A stretch of 64,000 bases of DNA from Candidatus Atelocyanobacterium thalassae (GCA_051971635.1 JBFPLN010000001.1:128001-192000); one strand, 5' to 3'; counted from the first letter of the stretch, positions 26,732 through 59,436 are shown. Numbers and translations are program-made. The notes: generated from the sequence alone by a model not told the origin.

Positions 26732-26809
26732 TTTCTTAAAAGATTTATGATTATAAGATAATCATAAATCTTTTAAGAAAAATAGGGATGTTATATTAAC
26801 ATCCCTATT
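26732..26809. terminator. Two back-to-back perfect hairpins (23 bp and 13 bp) between convergent genes
   Basis: tttcttaaaagatttatgattat/aag/ataatcataaatcttttaagaaa, then aatagggatgtta/tat/taacatccctatt. Confidence 0.75.
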
Positions 26810-26873: not shown

Positions 26874-29312
26874 TTAGAGATTAACTGTAGTTTTAAATTG
26901 TCCAAAGATTTTGCAGAATTCATCATAACTTAACTCATAGTCACCACTAGTATCTGCTATCTTAAGCATTTGCTCAATTTGACTATCTGATAGTCCTGTA
27001 TCAATATCTCTTAAGCATAATCTTAGCTCTTCAAGACTGATATTTCCTGAGCCATCCATATCGAAGAAGCGAAAGCGTTGTAACATTGCTTCTTCTTGTG
27101 TATTAGTTAAACTACAATGCATAAGACTAGTAAATTCAGCAAAAGTAAGATCTTCACTCCCCCGGCGACCAGTCATCATATCCATAACTTCTTGAAGTCT
27201 TTCAGAAGAATAAGAACGACCAACTGCTCTTAATAAAGCATGCAATTCAGCCATTGACAGGGTATTATTCCCATCTTTGTCAAATTTTTTGAATGCTTGT
27301 TGATAAAATACCATTTGTGTTTCATCAATTGGACCAACATTGCAGGCAACTCCTTCTTTTCCTTGTGCAATAGCATCTATATGCTCAATTGCGCTAAGAG
27401 TGTATGCCATCGTTTTCCATAAATGATGTGGATTTGAATTAGTTAAGATATCTTGCTCTTCCTCAGGTGTGATAGAATACTCTTCCCGTATATCTTCAAC
27501 CATTTTCAACTCTTTAGCTGATAGTTTTGAAAGAACGTTGTTAAATGATTCAAATCCCTTTTTGCCAATCATTATGTCATAAAGACTTAAAATAATTGCC
27601 TGGTGGGGATGATCTTTAGATGCTTCAACAATAGTATCGAAAAGTGATTGACGATAACTTTCTTGTCTTAACCAATCTTCACGGTTCTTATCATCTCGTA
27701 CTTCATGAATACTAGGATTTTCAACTTCAATTTCTGTTAACACTAAATCATGTTCTTTATCAGAAATATTAAGCTCTAATCGAACCTGTTCAAACATTCC
27801 GAGACTGGTCGCAGCATTAACATAACCCTCTGCTAATGTTTCCCTAACTATTCCTTTATAAGCTTGTAATCTTTTCTCTTTATCAAATCCAGGAAGTATT
27901 TTGGCAAGAACATACACTTCATCAGCATGAAGATCGTCTAGTGATCTTCCTTCTAAGAATTGAGAAACATCAAGCTTTAATTTTCCTAACTGTTTACGGA
28001 GACGACCAGCCAAGCTTTCTCTTTGATATAGATATGGGTTTCTAGGCCAAGTTCTATATAACCATAAAGAACTAACAATCGCCATTATTACAGGGAAAAG
28101 ATACTCTAGTGAGGAAGGTAACAATCTAACTGCAGTACGGCCACCAAAAACAAAGAAGAAGTTGTAAATTATAAATGTTCCTAATGCAAACATTCTATGA
28201 CGAACAATTTCATTATTTACTAACTTATGATGACGGAATAAATATGCTTTATAACGTTTTTCAATAAAACGACCCAACCAATAGGCTGCTAAACCAAATA
28301 TGGCAAGAACTAAAGGAGCCGCAACTAATTTAGGAATAGGAATAGGGGTATTGAAAATATATAAACCTGGTCTAAATAAATCAGCTACCTGGTCTTCATG
28401 AGTATAAACACCAGCGAAATAATATTCCCAATTACCTGCAAAAAGATAAAAATAAACGAAGAAACCAACAGTTAATCCAAAGTACCCATAATGGAGCCAT
28501 TGCTGTTCAGGTTTTGTTATATTTTCCCAATATGTACGTTCTGCATCAATATCTATACAGGGAGTTTTACAAGCTACACAAGAGCTAGTTTCTACACCTT
28601 CTGCATTAGTAGTACGACACATAGACTGTGTAATTAATTTCCGTTCTCCCTCTCCTTCATGGGCAGTACTATTAAGAAGTCCTCTAGGTTCTGCAAAAAT
28701 TTTCTGTACAGGAGACATAGGACAAAAATACTGACACCAAGATTTTCCTCCAAATAGGAATCCTACTGATATCGCAGATAAAATGGTTGCTACCAAGAAA
28801 AGTCCTAATAGAAGACGATCTGAATTAACAAATAAGAGACGAAGAGTAATTCCTATATAGAATAATAGTAATTGCAAATACAAGTGATTTCGACCTAGCC
28901 AAGATTTTTTATCAACTCTAGCTACTTCAACACGAGTTTTGCCTGTTATAACATCTACTCGTCTACGATGTCTCTGCCATCCCAAAGCACGAGGAATTTG
29001 AGATAAAAAAGATAAAGGACAAATTCGTCTCCATAATTCATGTCCGCCTACTAATAAAGCAACTATGCCTGTTGGAACAATCCAGCCCCAAAACAAAGCG
29101 GCTCCCATTGCATAAGGTTCTTCTTCTATGCAGTTTCCTTGAAGTTTGACACATACCGTATAGTCAAGAGCGAAAGGACTCCATGTATTTTCTGGCTGTG
29201 TAAACCAAGGAGAAACTGGGTCCCAAAATAAAGAAAGAATGAGAACTAGCCAGCCAATAGCTAATACCCATCGCACATAGTGCATTTGTCGTTCAGGAAT
29301 TCTCGCAAACAT
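26874..29312 (-). CDS. Membrane 4Fe-4S-binding (NapH/FixG-like) protein fused to a calmodulin-like EF-hand domain
   Basis: TM helices with WRRICP, WCQYFCP and CVACKTPC; C-terminal EF loops DKDGNNTLSMAE, DMDGSGNISLEE, DTSGDYELSYDE. Confidence 0.85.
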   Translation of the reverse strand: MFARIPERQMHYVRWVLAIGWLVLILSLFWDPVSPWFTQPENTWSPFALDYTVCVKLQGNCIEEEPYAMGAALFWGWIVPTGIVALLVGGHELWRRICPLSFLSQIPRALGWQRHRRRVDVITGKTRVEVARVDKKSWLGRNHLYLQLLLFYIGITLRLLFVNSDRLLLGLFLVATILSAISVGFLFGGKSWCQYFCPMSPVQKIFAEPRGLLNSTAHEGEGERKLITQSMCRTTNAEGVETSSCVACKTPCIDIDAERTYWENITKPEQQWLHYGYFGLTVGFFVYFYLFAGNWEYYFAGVYTHEDQVADLFRPGLYIFNTPIPIPKLVAAPLVLAIFGLAAYWLGRFIEKRYKAYLFRHHKLVNNEIVRHRMFALGTFIIYNFFFVFGGRTAVRLLPSSLEYLFPVIMAIVSSLWLYRTWPRNPYLYQRESLAGRLRKQLGKLKLDVSQFLEGRSLDDLHADEVYVLAKILPGFDKEKRLQAYKGIVRETLAEGYVNAATSLGMFEQVRLELNISDKEHDLVLTEIEVENPSIHEVRDDKNREDWLRQESYRQSLFDTIVEASKDHPHQAIILSLYDIMIGKKGFESFNNVLSKLSAKELKMVEDIREEYSITPEEEQDILTNSNPHHLWKTMAYTLSAIEHIDAIAQGKEGVACNVGPIDETQMVFYQQAFKKFDKDGNNTLSMAELHALLRAVGRSYSSERLQEVMDMMTGRRGSEDLTFAEFTSLMHCSLTNTQEEAMLQRFRFFDMDGSGNISLEELRLCLRDIDTGLSDSQIEQMLKIADTSGDYELSYDEFCKIFGQFKTTVNL

Positions 29313-29864
29313 AAGCTGTGTTTTCCAACTCTATAGAGATAAAAAAGATTTCTCCAGGCTGATTTCACACTGGATAGTAAATAGACTACACATTTTTATT
29401 ATCCCTGATTTTACCCAGTTTTGGTAGAACTTTTTTATCTACTAGAATAGATTTCTCATATACTAGAATCATATTAAGAAACTAATTTAGATAAAAACTC
29501 TATAAATAAATGCAATTAGTGTAGATAAAAATGATAATAATTTATCTAAAAAATGAAATTATGATCATTTTCGTACAAAAGATTCTTTTGAATCAATTTA
29601 ATAATGTTTTAGATAAAATAATTTCATTTTTTAGTAGTAACAAATTTTCTTAAGTAATAAAATCTTGTAGAAAAAATACCCTTTTTCAAAATCTTCTTAT
29701 TGTTCATTTTTCAAAATGTCATGAATCTATAAGTTAATCTTAGTAAATTTTACATTAAACTTTTTTATATACAATAATAAATTGATCTTCTACTTTAGTT
29801 GTTGTGAAAGATTAATTTTTCACAACATAAAATGTCTGAAAATTTACTAATGACAAGTAGAGTA

Positions 29865-29937
29865 CGGGTGTGACAGGACTCGAACCTGTAGCCGACAGCT
29901 TAGAAGGCTGTTGCTCTATCCATTGAGCTACACACCC
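29865..29937 (-). tRNA. tRNA-Arg (TCT)
   Basis: GGGTGTGTAGCTCAATGGATAGAGCAACAGCCTTCTAAGCTGTCGGCTACAGGTTCGAGTCCTGTCACACCCG. Confidence 0.96.
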
Positions 29938-29976
29938 ACGGAATATATTGTAACGTTTTTTTAGATAAATAACATA

Positions 29977-36824: not shown

Positions 36825-37955
36825 ATGATTGATGAAAATGTAGAATGTTCTGATCATCCTCTAGCAGAATATATTAATCGTTTAGAAAATAATGATACTC
36901 TCCTTACTGATTCACCACAGAATGTTATTGAAGTTGTGGGAATATTAAAAAGTTACGGAATTATTTTAGACTCGTATTCTCAAAATTTAAACTATATAGC
37001 AAGTCATCAGGTTTTAATCTTTTTTCCACTTTTTAAATACTTTAATGGAAAAATATCTTTTAAGAAAATATTAAGACATTTAAAGCATCAGCGTATCAAC
37101 TATGAATATGCAGAATACTGTGTAAGAACTATGATGTGGCATGGCGGTGGAGGTTTAGATATTTATCTAGATAGTGAAGAATTTATAGAAAATGTGAATA
37201 ATTTAATTTCAACTAAATTCAAATATAATTTATTGATTAAGATACTCCATAAAATCTTTCCTGAATTTTTTATAGAACAAATGAGAATGATGGTCTACTA
37301 CAAATGTTTAGGTGAATTTTGGAAAGAGATGTCTCATATTTTTTCATGTCTTTCTGATAACTATGATCGGTATGAAATCCAATCTATTCCTGACATTGTT
37401 GAACATATTCTAGATAATCTTAAAGAAAAAGCACATCAATCTATTTGTTATGAAGTTGAAATAAAAAACCAGAAATTTACAATCATACCAAAGCTAGCAA
37501 ATCTGAAGTTATTCCAAGATGTTGTTATTCCTTATGCAGAATCTATTTTCTTCAGAGGAACACCATTTCCAGGCACTGTTTCTTATAATGCTCAAGCGTA
37601 TCAAATTCCTTCAGAAAAATCTTCTTTTACATACGGAATATTATATGCAGATCCCCTTCCTACAGGTGGAGCAGGCATACCTCCAACTTTATTAATGAAA
37701 GATATTAGTCGCCATATACCTGACTATCTTCATAGTGTTTATTCTCAAACTATTCGTCAAGAGGATGTTCTGTTGGTACAAATCTGTAAAAGTTTTCAAA
37801 AATCTATGTTTTGTGTAACAACAGCTGCAATTAAAGGCCTAGCACCGTATTCGCTAAGTACCACTAATATTGAACAAAAAAAGCAAAATAGAATCTTTTT
37901 AAAGAAATGGATGAATCGCTTTCAGTATTCACAGATTTCAATTATTAATGATTAA
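36825..37955 (+). CDS. cupB: CO2 hydration protein, CupB/ChpX type
   Basis: HPLAEYI.RLE, RINYEYAEYC..MMWHGGGG, SYNAQA.QIP, YADPLP.GGAGIPPTLLM; 376 aa fits CupB better than CupA. Confidence 0.88.
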   Translation: MIDENVECSDHPLAEYINRLENNDTLLTDSPQNVIEVVGILKSYGIILDSYSQNLNYIASHQVLIFFPLFKYFNGKISFKKILRHLKHQRINYEYAEYCVRTMMWHGGGGLDIYLDSEEFIENVNNLISTKFKYNLLIKILHKIFPEFFIEQMRMMVYYKCLGEFWKEMSHIFSCLSDNYDRYEIQSIPDIVEHILDNLKEKAHQSICYEVEIKNQKFTIIPKLANLKLFQDVVIPYAESIFFRGTPFPGTVSYNAQAYQIPSEKSSFTYGILYADPLPTGGAGIPPTLLMKDISRHIPDYLHSVYSQTIRQEDVLLVQICKSFQKSMFCVTTAAIKGLAPYSLSTTNIEQKKQNRIFLKKWMNRFQYSQISIIND

Positions 37956-43011: not shown

Positions 43012-46000
43012 TTATGTAAAGTTTAAACTTAATTGAATGTAATTAGATGATTGTTCTTTTGCCTCACATTTTAATTTGAATGAGCAATATTCTTCGAACC
43101 ACCATTCAGAGTTACCAGAAAGCTTTTGGTCCTTCAAAAGCCATTTTTCAAAAACCTGTTCTCTATTGTCACTAGGAGGAACTACTTGATAAACACGAAA
43201 TCTTTTTTTGCCTAATTTTTGACTTCCACAACTATTAATACTGAATCCTATTTTATCTAGTAATTTTCTTATAATTGTAATTGGGCTAGCATTATTTGCA
43301 ATACCAATTCCTATTATAGATTTAATATCTCGTTTGTTACTTATCGCTAAATGTGACATTTTTACTAAATCAGGATCAATATTAATTATTTTTCTATTTA
43401 TATTATGTAACAAAGTATGTATTCCTAAAACTTCTAATATTCCTATAGTTGCTCCTAATTGAGAACTATTGAAATCAGGTAAAAATATACTTCCTTCACC
43501 TTGTTCTATCATTTTTTGCGCTATCTTAGCATCTCTTTCTGCTAAATGAGTACGACCTTTTGTTAGAAAATAATGAATTCTTAATTTTTGGTACCATCCA
43601 TTATCATCTAGCATAACTAACTCTGGTGTAACAGGTATGGAATAAAGTGATTTTAGATTATATTTTCTTAATTTCCTTCGCTCCATAGCAGTCTTAACCA
43701 AAGATCTTTTTAAGACTTTATATTCCTCTTTAGTTAAATCTCCAGCTAGACTAATACTTTCAGATTCTAATTTATAGTTATTCTCTCTAATCTCTTCGAT
43801 AGCTTCTATTAAGCTATTCTTCTTAGGAGAAACATATAATTTTTTATTTTGAGACTTTCTCCTTTGAAGACTTTTATTCTCATTAGAAAATTCAACTTTA
43901 TGATTAGCTCTTTGAAGAAAATTAATTATTGTTTCTCGATACGTAATCATTTTTGTATTCATGCGTACTGCCATTTTCCCCCAACATAATAAGGACTCTC
44001 CTTGAAAACCTATATCTAGATCATCTAGGGACTCTAAATCAGACTGTTGCAAAAATCTAATATTTAAATTTGTTATTCGATGGCCTGAAGTTAGTAAGCC
44101 TGGAATTGATACTGAACCGTTACCTACTTTATTGAATCCATAAGAAGCAAGCCAGAGATAACGAGGAATGTTTTCCCTTATTCTCCCAAGTGATTGAATA
44201 ACAGATGTAGGATTTTGGATTCCTTGAGCTAAGCACCAGACAGAGCTAAAATGTCCTTTTATGTCAATACTAATTCCTGTTTCCAGAACAGGACTGGTGA
44301 TAACAATATCGTATTTAGTTAGTATCGAATCTAAATCATTAATACATTTATAGGCATTATGATTTGGATCTGCTAAAGATTCAGAATCAATGCGAAGAAT
44401 TTTGGTACTAGGAAATCGTTGTTGTAAATATAATTCCAAAGTCTGCGTACCCCATTTACTAGTCAATTTTTGGGCAGATAAACAAATATAAGGTTTACCT
44501 CCTTGTTGTATATGTTCTACTAAGTCTTTTAAAAATTTTCTAGGAGTATTTTCTATATAGTTGTAAGCTTTCCATGTACTTGAAGATTTAGGTATCCAGT
44601 TATTTCTAACTATATAAGGCTCTATAGGATATCCAGATAAGGCAGTTAAATACTCCACAGAAATATTACTAAGGTCAGCATCAGCAATAAATATCCTACC
44701 CTCTCCGCTCATAACTTTCTGTATTAAGCTTTTCAAACACTTGAGGATAGAGACTCGATTATTAGAACAGGTCTCAGAATTAAGACCATGCCAAAGTACT
44801 TGTTCAACTTCATCAATAATTATTAGTGCATCTTGCCAATCATGTGGATTAAAGTTTGCTTGTGATTTTTTGTGCAAAGAATCAATACATAGACCGTATC
44901 CTAAACATTCTGCCGAGTTGCTATCCTTACATTCTGTAATATATGACAGTCCAAAACGTTGACATAATTGCTCAACTAATTTGATACGGTGTCCAATTAC
45001 CAAAATTTTCTGTTTTTTTGCAATTGCTTTTTGAACAATTTTAGATAAAAACTTAGTTTTTCCTGTACCGATGCCAGACTTAATAGCAACTAGTCTTTTT
45101 GTTTCAGGTATTGATAGATTAGGGATATAGGGAGTATTAATTTCTAAATCAGAGTTAAGCGTTAAATTATTTAGTTCTTTTGCTTTCCAAGTTTCAATAG
45201 GAAAAGCTTGTTCATAACATCTATCAAAAGCGTTATTACCAGAATTTAATAAAAAGTCATCTACTCCCTTTCCATCTCTTAAATCCCAGGTAGTAACTTT
45301 AACTTGACATCCTAAAGAATTCATGAGAAATCCTAATTTTCTTACTGCTTTATTAACAGCTTTAACAGTGTTCGGTTTATTATCTTGATCAAAGGCAATA
45401 TAAACAGTTCTCCCTGTTACAACTAATTTATGTAATTGAGGAATTAAATAAGATTTTCCAATGCGATGACCAATCTCATTTTTTGGGGTACGGTAGCCAT
45501 TATTAATACCAGGAAGAGCAATCGCAACATAACCTGCAGTTAATAGTGCACCTGCTTTTTTTGCACCTTCTGTTATACAAAGTGGAATAGACTTATTATC
45601 GATTACCCATTGCCAAAATCCAAAATCTGATTGCGATTTATCAACTGTTTCCGGTTTAAATTCAATATCATACCTTTGAGCTATTCTTCGCCATAGATGT
45701 AATGGTACTCTTAAAGCAAAAATACCTGTTGGTGTCTTTGGAGGATGTTCATATCTAATTATTTTATTTTCATCATAGTTAAAACGTGGTTTGTCTGGTT
45801 TGAAGCATCCCCAAAGATCACTAGTTCCTGTCATAATGTCTATACCAGAACACCACCAACCTCCTTTCTCTACATGCTCATAACGCTTCAAGATAGAATT
45901 ACTCAATCTACCATCATTCCTTCTAGCAAGTTCATCAGAATATAGTAAATATTCTGATGGAGAAGTTCCTTTTAAAGTTTTTACGTTTAATTCAATCAAT

Positions 46001-46044
46001 TGCCTATCAACGCAACTGTTTAGCCATTCTTGTTCGTGTCCCAC
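43012..46044 (-). CDS. Plasmid-type replication protein of the CyRepA1 family (DUF3854/TOPRIM primase-like + helicase)
   Basis: YEHPPK, ITEGAKKAG.LL, IAFDQD, KGVDD (TOPRIM-like); SGIGTGKT Walker A, IIDEVEQ Walker B, SPVLETGISID, QSLGRIR. Confidence 0.87.
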   Translation of the reverse strand: MGHEQEWLNSCVDRQLIELNVKTLKGTSPSEYLLYSDELARRNDGRLSNSILKRYEHVEKGGWWCSGIDIMTGTSDLWGCFKPDKPRFNYDENKIIRYEHPPKTPTGIFALRVPLHLWRRIAQRYDIEFKPETVDKSQSDFGFWQWVIDNKSIPLCITEGAKKAGALLTAGYVAIALPGINNGYRTPKNEIGHRIGKSYLIPQLHKLVVTGRTVYIAFDQDNKPNTVKAVNKAVRKLGFLMNSLGCQVKVTTWDLRDGKGVDDFLLNSGNNAFDRCYEQAFPIETWKAKELNNLTLNSDLEINTPYIPNLSIPETKRLVAIKSGIGTGKTKFLSKIVQKAIAKKQKILVIGHRIKLVEQLCQRFGLSYITECKDSNSAECLGYGLCIDSLHKKSQANFNPHDWQDALIIIDEVEQVLWHGLNSETCSNNRVSILKCLKSLIQKVMSGEGRIFIADADLSNISVEYLTALSGYPIEPYIVRNNWIPKSSSTWKAYNYIENTPRKFLKDLVEHIQQGGKPYICLSAQKLTSKWGTQTLELYLQQRFPSTKILRIDSESLADPNHNAYKCINDLDSILTKYDIVITSPVLETGISIDIKGHFSSVWCLAQGIQNPTSVIQSLGRIRENIPRYLWLASYGFNKVGNGSVSIPGLLTSGHRITNLNIRFLQQSDLESLDDLDIGFQGESLLCWGKMAVRMNTKMITYRETIINFLQRANHKVEFSNENKSLQRRKSQNKKLYVSPKKNSLIEAIEEIRENNYKLESESISLAGDLTKEEYKVLKRSLVKTAMERRKLRKYNLKSLYSIPVTPELVMLDDNGWYQKLRIHYFLTKGRTHLAERDAKIAQKMIEQGEGSIFLPDFNSSQLGATIGILEVLGIHTLLHNINRKIINIDPDLVKMSHLAISNKRDIKSIIGIGIANNASPITIIRKLLDKIGFSINSCGSQKLGKKRFRVYQVVPPSDNREQVFEKWLLKDQKLSGNSEWWFEEYCSFKLKCEAKEQSSNYIQLSLNFT

Positions 46045-58787: not shown

Positions 58788-59294
58788 TTAACGAATACGT
58801 GAATAAGCAGCTTCCGAAATAGTAGGAATTTCAGCATATCTACCTAATACACTTTGAATCATAGAATAATAGGAAGCAACAAGACCTCCTAAAAATATAA
58901 GACTATAAAAAGTTTCTATGAACAAACCACTATGTCCTAAAGTGGGAATTAAAACATATTGCATTACAATTCTTGCTAAGGCTAATGAAATTGATATAAG
59001 AATAGATTGCATTGTATTGTAGCGAATAAAATGACTAATCTTTTCATTTCTTACAACTGCTGCAAAGAGTATAATAAATACTGCAAAGCTAGCAAAACTT
59101 CCTAGAGGTCCTAGCAACGATGCAAGAAGTCCATAGCTTAATTCTACTGGTAAAGCAGGAAAACAAAAAAAACCAAAAGCAGGAAACTGTTGTAATAAGA
59201 AGCTTCCAAAAAATAGAGTATCATAAATAGCAAAACAATAGACTATGATTCCAAAAATACGATCCGGTATACTTACTGATCCACGCCAGGTCAT
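58788..59294 (-). CDS. Tic20 family protein (Ycf60)
   Basis: MTWRG...DRIF, VVRNEKISHFIRYNTMQSIL, G.YAEIP.ISEAAY. Confidence 0.9.
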   Translation of the reverse strand: MTWRGSVSIPDRIFGIIVYCFAIYDTLFFGSFLLQQFPAFGFFCFPALPVELSYGLLASLLGPLGSFASFAVFIILFAAVVRNEKISHFIRYNTMQSILISISLALARIVMQYVLIPTLGHSGLFIETFYSLIFLGGLVASYYSMIQSVLGRYAEIPTISEAAYSRIR

Positions 59295-59436
59295 TCTTAA
59301 TACTCCTTTGTTCCTAAAAAATTGAATATCATTAATGTACAACATTTATAGAAAATAATATTATTCAGTTCTAATCTGTATAAATTTACATAAGATTTTT
59401 TTGAAAAACTAATTTAATATTGTAATTTCTATCAAT

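Follow-up and report, generated by a model that had tools for sequence, protein, structure and literature searches.

Proteins of the NapH, NosR, and RdhC (PceC) type are, in the accessible text of PMC5928378 and PMC8238504, proposed links between the membrane and cytoplasmic redox carriers. As set out in the available part of the former, the three share a module of four membrane segments with two CX3CP motifs, supplemented in NapH and NosR by two 4Fe-4S motifs; how CX3CP works chemically is described there as unresolved, and may involve disulfides; and NapH-type modules are proposed to work with quinones. Proteins of the family PF12801 (Fer4_5) are treated as "NapH-like" transmembrane electron-transfer components in the available part of the latter. 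Here we compare with these systems a gene on the minus strand of a 64,000-nucleotide stretch of the genome of Candidatus Atelocyanobacterium thalassae (GCA_051971635.1 JBFPLN010000001.1:128001-192000, the whole of which we call the window). Its protein joins a polytopic membrane core to a calmodulin-like module of four EF-hands, and we think it probable, if far from assured, that it works as a redox module in the membrane, switched by Ca2+, receiving electrons from a [2Fe-2S] ferredoxin-type donor and passing them on within the membrane, most probably to quinone. The parts of the gene on which this reading draws are the following, in window coordinates.

26874..29312, minus strand: whole gene, 812 amino acids plus stop, a single ATG-started open reading frame (ORF), from the ORF call
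27981..29312, minus strand: membrane core, residues 1-444, with 8 predicted transmembrane (TM) helices, from an AlphaFold2 model and the hydropathy profile
29016..29033, minus strand: half motif W94-R-R-I-C98-P99 (WRRICP) at the predicted cytoplasmic end of TM2, from the alignment, coordinates re-derived
28719..28739, minus strand: canonical CX3CP motif W192-C193-Q-Y-F-C197-P198 (WCQYFCP) after TM4, from the Fer4_5 match
28539..28619, minus strand: predicted cytoplasmic Cys cluster C232-x12-C245-x2-C248-x3-C252, then acidic D254-I-D256-A-E258, CRTTNAEGVETSSCVACKTPCIDIDAE, from the alignment
27438..27980, minus strand: helical, predicted cytoplasmic linker, residues 445-625, from alignments and a model of residues 426-812
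27360..27437, minus strand: amphipathic Leu-Trp helix, residues 626-651 (L631, W632, M635, L639, I642, I645), from homologue statistics and a complex model
26877..27332, minus strand: calmodulin-like module, residues 661-812, from Pfam, model, and fold matches
27246-27281, minus strand: EF1 loop DKDGNNTLSMAE, canonical
27135-27170, minus strand: EF2 loop GRRGSEDLTFAE, degenerate
27027-27062, minus strand: EF3 loop DMDGSGNISLEE, canonical
26919-26954, minus strand: EF4 loop DTSGDYELSYDE, canonical

A sequence-only reading of this locus had picked out the WRRICP, WCQYFCP, and Cys-cluster motifs and the EF loops, and all of them were recovered when re-derived from the window coordinates. A homologue search of the assembly (1,469,411 bases in 6 contigs, 99.74% complete) found the gene as a single copy in its own 1.47-Mb genome, where it is also the sole Fer4_5 gene and the sole EF-hand gene, matches to EF-hand_7 (PF13499) being confined to its frame. 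Public records name the protein by its EF-hands alone; the 90%-identity cluster of a 97%-identical protein includes Candidatus Atelocyanobacterium thalassa and "endosymbiont of Braarudosphaera bigelowii" records, the next relatives after the UCYN-A proteins are from Crocosphaera (67-74% identity), and the sole matches in a protein atlas are cyanobacterial "Fer4_5 / 4Fe-4S binding protein" clusters. We found no study of the protein or its family in the literature searched, a search with many subscription papers outside its reach, and a nitroplast imaging preprint does not mention the protein.

An alignment of 122 diverse homologues, with the window protein as reference row, has 13 invariant columns (W94, C98, P99, R158, G189, C193, C197, P198, C232, C245, C248, C252, and D254), so that the window protein carries all 13 family-defining residues, among them the seven invariant Cys 98, 193, 197, 232, 245, 248, and 252. 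At least 90% of the same sequences keep D256 and E258, and conservation of C54 and C61 is confined to cyanobacterial members. AlphaFold2, given the 122 sequences, modelled residues 1-450 with a predicted local distance difference test score (pLDDT) of 94.4 and a predicted template modelling score of 0.92 as eight long helices, with predicted TM helices at 7-29, 70-97, 143-162, 166-186, 268-292, 328-360, 367-389, and 400-421 and the two Cys motifs immediately following TM2 and TM4. The segment that follows helix 2 (residues 100-140) is very basic, and because of this segment and of the C-terminal reductase and sensor domains found in relatives, both termini and all seven invariant Cys probably lie on the cytoplasmic face. 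The linker is all-helical in a model of residues 426-812 and common to all family architectures up to about residue 560; no Pfam family was found over residues 445-625.

The likeness of this core to NapH, NosR, and RdhC consists of a TM helix followed by W-C-x3-C-P at the cytoplasmic face, and of Cys-rich cytoplasmic sequence after the fourth helix. The differences are more numerous: i) the first CX3CP motif is here W-x3-C-P, with the Trp invariant in the 122 sequences; ii) one C-x12-C-x2-C-x3-C group stands in place of the two CX2CX2CX3CP motifs of NapH and NosR; iii) the core has 8 helices, four more than the shared module; iv) the family has no flavin mononucleotide-binding domain; v) its partner is a cytoplasmic FAD/NAD/2Fe-2S reductase, not a periplasmic reductase as for NapH, NosR, and RdhC; and vi) it adds C-terminal second-messenger sensors. 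CcoG/FixG/RdxA is likewise a membrane protein with cytoplasmic Cys motifs, but the focal protein is without the double ferredoxin-type 4Fe-4S motif, has another helix count, and carries the linker and EF-hand module besides.

Profile searches place the protein outside both groups. The NapH/MauN family (TIGR02163) gave no match at E ≤ 1 for the window protein and matched 8 of 27 relatives weakly (best E 0.0012, far from the cut-off). CcoG/FixG/RdxA (TIGR02745) scored 10.9 bits (E 0.16) against a cut-off of 316.7; it is the best-scoring NCBIfam relative of the core, matching 6 of the 27 family members (best E 1.8e-5, again far from the cut-off), and NCBIfam held nothing for the core beyond this weak match. 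Fer4_5 itself matches 24 of the 27 at E ≤ 0.01. The earlier description of the N-terminus as NapH/FixG/RdxA-like thus stands for one TM helix with its CX3CP motif, and falls for the rest, since the scores stay far below the cut-offs, the leading Cys of the first CX3CP is missing, and CX2CX2CX3CP is absent. From the unreached cut-offs, the half first motif, the single Cys group, and the shortness of the NapH alignment (given below), we conclude that the core family, most of whose members are cyanobacterial, is a distinct and uncharacterised branch of the Fer4_5 superfamily, neither NapH nor CcoG.

The C-terminal module has Pfam scores of 72.7 bits for EF-hand_7 (cut-off 30, in two stretches) and, at residues 670-698, of 57.8 for EF-hand_6 and 52.9 for EF-hand_1. 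EF1, EF3, and EF4 keep ligand positions 1, 3, 5, and 12, and EF2 fails at positions 1 and 3. The same pattern holds among relatives: EF1 is canonical in 25/25 four-EF homologues and EF2 in 0/25, both being absent from two-EF forms, while EF3 is canonical in 23/25 four-EF and 54/55 two-EF forms and EF4 in 20/25 and 45/55, respectively. Four helix-loop-helix units are seen in the model of residues 426-812 (pLDDT 80), and the best Foldseek matches are compact, peptide-wrapping calmodulins (GCaMP and calmodulin-peptide complexes; E from 2.4e-8, root-mean-square deviation 2.4-2.7 Å over about 145 columns, 29-33% identity). Pfam, model, fold matches, and loop statistics accordingly agree with the sequence-only reading, which had proposed a calmodulin-like module of four EF-hands with three canonical loops and one degenerate loop.

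The resemblance extends upstream of the EF-hands. The two highest VIA-align rows (Z 18.9 and 18.7, with alignments of 170 and 165 residues) begin at 202-204 in the model's numbering and therefore include the helix before EF1, and the activation domains of calcium-dependent protein kinases (CDPKs) are among the matches from this helix onward (3pm8_B and 3khe_B). CDPKs are regulated by a junction helix together with a calmodulin-like activation domain. In the EF-type homologues W632 is present in 80/80 and L631 in 77/80, with hydrophobic residues at 635, 639, 642, and 645. When residues 661-812 were modelled in complex with residues 600-660 and three Ca, three runs had a median score of 0.82, against 0.00 for the best of 3 controls, a mark that 51/78 solved complexes and 2/108 mismatched pairs attain. 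At least 82% of contacts are common to the runs, with a partner pLDDT of 60 or more, and the contacts are made by residues 626-629 and 631-649, L631 and W632 lying on the C-lobe (778-786) and 637-649 on the N-lobe. The two pieces are neighbours in one chain, and since the complex resembles solved calmodulin-peptide complexes, the pass may reflect the model's memory. The modelling supports, and does not show, an intramolecular Ca2+ clamp on the Leu-Trp helix.

With calmodulin and the CDPK activation domains, then, the module shares four EF-hands in two lobes and an amphipathic helix with a Trp anchor, situated immediately before the first EF-hand and, by prediction, held between the lobes. Unlike either, it is tethered to a polytopic membrane core of putative redox function, neither free nor attached to a kinase; its EF2 is degenerate in all 25 four-EF relatives; and its target helix is neutral to acidic, not basic. 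Separately, the genome keeps a CaCA-type Ca2+ exchanger (Na_Ca_ex, a 366-amino-acid frame with two repeats) outside the window, at G000:C1:81886-82827.

A word-indexed homologue search gave 2116 matches among 8000 scored candidates, and 269 clusters at E ≤ 1e-30 came out of an exhaustive search among representatives; the conserved part of the family covers about residues 1-560, and what follows it varies. In a Pfam scan of 49 long representatives, the C-terminus carried a cyclic-nucleotide-binding domain (cNMP_binding) without FHA in 15, FHA or an FHA-like domain with cNMP_binding in 11, FHA only in 5, and a reductase module of NAD_binding_1 and Fer2 in 6 (with FAD_binding_6 detected in 4 and PilZ present in the other 2); Fer4_5 only was found in 5, and no Pfam family in 7. 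In total cNMP_binding occurs in 26 of the 49, FHA or FHA-like domains in 16, and PilZ in 2, and the statement in the earlier account that homologues of the N-terminus usually carry a cyclic-nucleotide-binding domain is well founded. Synechocystis slr0593, a "cAMP binding membrane protein", is a possible member of the cNMP type. Paralogous cyanobacterial proteins annotated as "4Fe-4S binding" or "cyclic nucleotide-binding domain-containing" are 44-58% identical over the first 560 or so residues and have the same seven Cys, but end in cNMP, FHA plus cNMP, or reductase modules, or in nothing, where the window protein has four EF-hands. Free-living relatives hold several such paralogues; the window's own genome keeps the four-EF form alone.

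EF-hand forms come in two sizes, about 710-775 amino acids with one EF pair and about 800-820 with two. In a quick maximum-likelihood tree of 72 cores, with the root chosen by us on the PilZ-reductase forms, the EF-hand forms and sensor-less forms of about 625 amino acids make up one clade (Shimodaira-Hasegawa-like approximate likelihood-ratio support 99). A clade with support 100 unites 13 of 14 four-EF forms, and within a Crocosphaera-type group (support 99) the window protein clusters with two named UCYN-A proteins (support 100). The forms of about 625 amino acids stop just short of the Leu-Trp helix and look like EF forms that have lost the module.

Reductases recur beside the core as well as fused to it. 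Twenty further short-form loci were fetched, and a motif filter recognised the family ORF in 19 of them (L134 was left out). A gene encoding FHA, FAD_binding_6, NAD_binding_1, and Fer2 lies directly downstream on the same strand in 14 of the 19, the other 5 having unrelated downstream neighbours, and a Ser/Thr kinase-WD40 gene lies directly upstream in 9 of the 19. Among three short-form loci collected earlier, two have a reductase gene within 113 nt (Fer2 undetected in one), and the third has, 2.3 kb off, a putative reductase homologue assigned by BLAST clustering. Taking the fusion and operon evidence together, the core appears, on domain composition and gene order, to work with an NAD(P)H-flavin-2Fe-2S donor, access to which would be signal-controlled (by phosphothreonine, cyclic nucleotide, cyclic di-GMP, or Ca2+). 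The window's own genome encodes no FHA domain detectable by genome search and no homologue of the flavin (FAD/NAD) part of the operon-partner reductase; its only matches to that reductase are four small Fer2 ORFs of 104-129 amino acids.

Three arrangements around family members in other cyanobacteria can be recorded here. A one-strand trio of kinase-WD40 gene, short seven-Cys core, and FHA-FAD/NAD-2Fe-2S reductase recurs in loci L137-L149 and L152 (for example L143:2856-8411) and suggests phosphothreonine control of electron input. FHA plus cNMP forms adjoin a divergent Tll0287-like adenylate/guanylate cyclase gene at L044:7377-8966 and L045:6925-8454, which pairs a messenger source with a sensor. 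Flavin amine-oxidase/CrtI-like genes occur near family members at L027:11743-13320, L038:5551-7740, and L148:1421-2938, one of the three being fused to an LCIB-type carbonic anhydrase domain.

A redox or electron-transfer role is the best reading of the core because its relatives are fused to, or stand beside, FAD/NAD/2Fe-2S reductases. On the mechanism that we propose, the core would take electrons at its cytoplasmic Cys centre from a 2Fe-2S ferredoxin-type donor and relay them inside the membrane, with the quinone pool as the most probable recipient, and cytoplasmic Ca2+ would set its activity: the Ca2+-bound EF-hand domain would clamp the Leu-Trp helix as calmodulin does its target peptide, and clamping would move the linker that joins the EF-hand domain to the core. 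Since no dedicated reductase is encoded, free 2Fe-2S ferredoxins would be the likely donors in the reduced genome. Quinone is our preferred guess as acceptor, because NapH-type modules are proposed to work with quinones (PMC5928378, accessible text) and the core has no sign of a cofactor chain, for which latter reason the identity of the acceptor is a guess at all. We infer, in sum, Fe-S or thiol redox chemistry, Ca2+ binding and gating, and the identities of donor and acceptor.

The whole family, of which a core was detected in 89 of 201 sampled cyanobacterial genomes (nifH being over the cut-off in 55), has no association with nitrogen fixation, the core being present in 25/55 nifH-positive and 64/146 nifH-negative genomes. 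Co-occurrence with nif, to which the sequence-only reading had looked for corroboration, thus fails at the level of the family. The four-EF subtype alone leans, in the genomes sampled, toward diazotrophs. In the sample of 25 genomes from the window's own taxonomic family the four-EF form occurs in 9, of which 8 are nifH-positive and the remaining one, an assembly 81% complete, has no nifH match, and 7 of the 16 non-holders are nifH-positive; Fisher's test gives p 0.04, an overstated value because related genomes are not independent. The four-EF form occurs also in a heterocystous nifH-positive genome of another family (G166), and two-EF forms occur in nifH-negative genomes (G146 and G213); two nifH-positive relatives of 3.1 and 3.7 Mb have no match to the protein. 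The gene lies outside the nif cluster, on another contig in its own genome. In one genome (G205) the four-EF orthologue (C4:201980-204415) is about 12 kb from nifH (C4:216242-217060); in the other genomes checked the two are far apart or on different contigs.

Transcript data could be taken from supplementary tables of published arrays (PMC6315102 and PMC10153697, as far as these are accessible), locus tags being mapped to the window gene by annotation, length, identity, and status as sole EF-hand gene. In the accessible data of PMC6315102 (mBio 2019), UCYN-A transcripts are lowest at D3 and highest from D12 to L3, with a range of about 1.7-1.9 log2; array clusters of that shape hold nifHDK, NDH-1, and ATP synthase genes, and the UCYN-A2 gene follows nifH with r 0.94. 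The Crocosphaera watsonii orthologue (66% identical) is, in the published values available, high all night with a midday minimum (r 0.83 against nifH), and Cyanothece cce_1844 peaks at D2 on two probes, as nifH switches on (r 0.67, p 0.15, six points). In supplement 3 of PMC10153697 (PLoS One 2023) the gene peaks at D12 in three sublineages, with r against nifH of 0.89 in UCYN-A2 and 0.75 in UCYN-A3. In these tables, then, the expected agreement with nifH is seen in UCYN-A (0.75-0.94) and Crocosphaera (0.83), and less closely in Cyanothece (0.67, p 0.15). The four-EF subtype may plausibly act in the N2-fixing phase of metabolism; for the family at large we exclude a function specific to nif.

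The earlier proposal of a Ca2+-gated redox sensor or electron conduit is partly sustained, by the EF module, the redox-type family, the cNMP variants, and the transcripts that track nifH, and is to be given up as regards NapH/CcoG membership and a family-wide nif link. Several observations weigh against even the reading that we retain. Fer4_5 scores 20.6 bits on the protein (residues 173-208) against a Pfam hmmscan cut-off of 22, reaching 26.4 in a six-frame genome search, and hhalign to E. coli NapH covers 27 columns only, with a probability of 78.8%, onto the second CX3CP. Foldseek against the PDB gave the core 0 matches at E ≤ 0.001 (best 0.35) and VIA-align reached a Z of no more than 4.2 over 48,161 chains, an absence that does not prove a new fold. 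The 122-sequence alignment has no conserved TM His pair or sign of a membrane-spanning cofactor chain, no Cys spacing fits the canonical 4Fe-4S ferredoxin motif, and the first CX3CP is half a motif. It is from short forms and fusions that the reductase partners are known; none is documented for the EF-hand clade, which is nested far from the PilZ-reductase forms in the tree as we chose to root it, and EF-hand forms in 20 loci outside the genus have no conserved neighbour. Finally, the gene is flagged "not diel" in one of the two UCYN-A array studies (PMC10153697, accessible tables), and co-phasing with nifH is weak evidence because many genes share the phase. A PDB sequence profile search with the core alignment matched only its cNMP overhang.

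Other explanations can be built on the same features. CcoG is a cupric reductase of the Fer4_5 superfamily, and the Cys centre of the present core could reduce Cu2+ or Fe3+ at D254-x-D256-x-E258 for a transporter or cofactor pathway, under Ca2+ regulation; CcoG is indeed the best NCBIfam relative (6/27 members, best E 1.8e-5), an invariant or near-invariant acidic patch does follow the Cys cluster directly, reductase partners fit any reductase chemistry, and one EF-form locus (L029) has a multicopper oxidase gene 1.2 kb away, but a score of 10.9 bits against a cut-off of 316.7, the absence of CcoG's two ferredoxin-type 4Fe-4S motifs, and the lack of any recurrent metal-transporter neighbour in 38 non-congeneric loci make metal reduction or handling unlikely. 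That the protein is instead a sensor or a gated channel or transporter, its Cys sensing redox state, its EF-hands Ca2+, and its 8-TM domain carrying an ion or small molecule or passing a signal on, we hold to be distinctly unlikely: complete FAD/NAD/2Fe-2S reductases, fused or in an operon, are enzymic donors of electrons and hard to explain for a channel, and no channel or transporter emerged as a fold relative (the best rows being Rh/Amt, G-protein-coupled receptors, and Hrd1 at E of at least 0.35 or Z of at most 4.2), even if cNMP, EF-hand, and PilZ domains, which are typical regulators of channels and transporters, are the commonest C-termini of the family, the four-helix module of NapH, NosR, and RdhC has nothing that corresponds to TM helices 5-8, and no acceptor site is evident in the core.

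A thiol-disulfide relay of the DsbD/CcdA kind, from the cytoplasmic Cys to outward-facing C54 and C61 and on to periplasmic or lumenal targets, would draw on the position of these two residues in a β-hairpin of the first outside loop (in the model), on their conservation in at least 90% of the cyanobacterial set, and on the CX3CP chemistry, unresolved and perhaps disulfide-based in the accessible text of PMC5928378; we consider it very improbable, because distant members (for example P0135, P0203, and P0224) are without C54 and C61 yet have all seven cytoplasmic Cys, because the two lie outside the invariant and near-invariant columns of the 122-sequence set, and because no membrane-embedded Cys bridges the two faces. 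Dedicated support of nitrogenase, as an electron route specific to N2 fixation or as respiratory O2 protection, is to our minds improbable too: the core family is unrelated to nifH, two-EF forms occur in the nifH-negative G146 and G213, seven nifH-positive relatives are without the four-EF form and four of these (including those of 3.1 and 3.7 Mb) without any family match, and the gene is not in the nif cluster, approaching nifH to within 12 kb in G205 only. What speaks for such a role is that orthologue transcripts follow nifH, in the published tables available, in organisms whose N2 fixation falls in opposite halves of the diel cycle, that the four-EF holders among the 25 own-family genomes number 8 nifH-positive and 1 nifH-negative against 7 nifH-positive among 16 non-holders, counts limited by the non-independence of related genomes, and that G166, heterocystous, nifH-positive, and of another family, has the four-EF form.

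Whatever its function, the gene is under very strong purifying selection. It is intact in 3/3 genomes of the genus at 97-98% identity, with pairwise ratios of nonsynonymous to synonymous substitution (dN/dS) of 0.026-0.027 overall and of 0.01-0.04 in each of membrane core, linker, and EF module; the corresponding values for neighbouring genes are 0.04 for mlaE, 0.08-0.12 for era and the UDG-like (uracil-DNA glycosylase-like) and AI-2E genes, 0.14-0.15 for a glycosyltransferase-like gene, and 0.21 for recN. With identities of 96.8% and 97.8% it ranks first among the 43 window ORFs that have orthologues in both congeners, ahead of HtpG, SmpB, and ChlD, and the genome-wide average amino-acid divergence between two sublineages is given as 14% in the part of the source available. 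Strong purifying selection is also the likely reason why the gene is less AT-eroded, as the sequence-only reading had remarked: its GC content is 0.36 against 0.298 for the window (G+C about 30%), a distinction that it shares with the UDG-like gene (0.363) and mlaE (0.37). The second most conserved of the 43 ORFs (95.7% and 97.2%) encodes 185 amino acids at window 58788-59345, minus strand, and has no NCBIfam match at E ≤ 1e-10.

The immediate surroundings are fully syntenic in the three congeneric genomes, but not in free-living relatives, and include the following features.

26781..26809, minus strand: terminator-like hairpin, 13-bp stem plus T run, 65 nt past the stop, from a consensus scan only
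29313-29863: AT-rich 552-nt spacer between tRNA-Arg(TCT) and the focal gene
29864-29938, minus strand: tRNA-Arg(TCT), on the same strand, 552 nt upstream of the focal gene

A consensus scan found no promoter-like site on the minus strand of the 552-nt upstream spacer. Elsewhere in the window, a homologue of the CO2-hydration protein ChpX/Y (TIGR01964, E 3.9e-144) is encoded at 36825-37955, plus strand, 79% and 84% identical to its congeners; the UCYN-A lineage is described, in the part of the source available, as lacking carbon-fixation genes. A 1010-amino-acid ORF of the CyRepA1 plasmid-replication family (E 2.7e-179) at 43012-46044, minus strand, is carried by the largest contig of the reduced genome; the two congeners have it at 88-91% identity.

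Among the N2 fixers of the ocean the UCYN-A or nitroplast lineage is a major one, and it serves as a model for organelle origin; in its reduced genome the sole Ca2+-sensor domain is joined to what we read as a membrane redox core and has stayed near-unchanged across the genus while neighbours drifted. The gene is thus a testable handle on the regulation, or host control, of UCYN-A metabolism. At the scale of the family, the wiring of one seven-Cys core to four signal inputs and an NAD(P)H/2Fe-2S reductase suggests that cyanobacterial membranes have a regulated route for electrons that is undescribed in the literature searched. A bolder proposal, unlikely as matters stand, is that the protein is a switch for the electron economy of the nitroplast, a Ca2+-gated oxidoreductase of ferredoxin:quinone type controlled by the haptophyte host, which calcifies, or by the symbiont's own Ca2+ signalling. 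If this were true, the protein would apportion reduced ferredoxin, part going to nitrogenase and part to the membrane, and would thereby supply either photosystem I cyclic flow, for ATP, or the removal of O2 by respiration; the family would be an unrecognised class of signal-gated cyanobacterial membrane oxidoreductases, with Ca2+, cyclic nucleotide, cyclic di-GMP, and phosphothreonine versions; and it would become one candidate for the ferredoxin-to-plastoquinone route that has long been sought.

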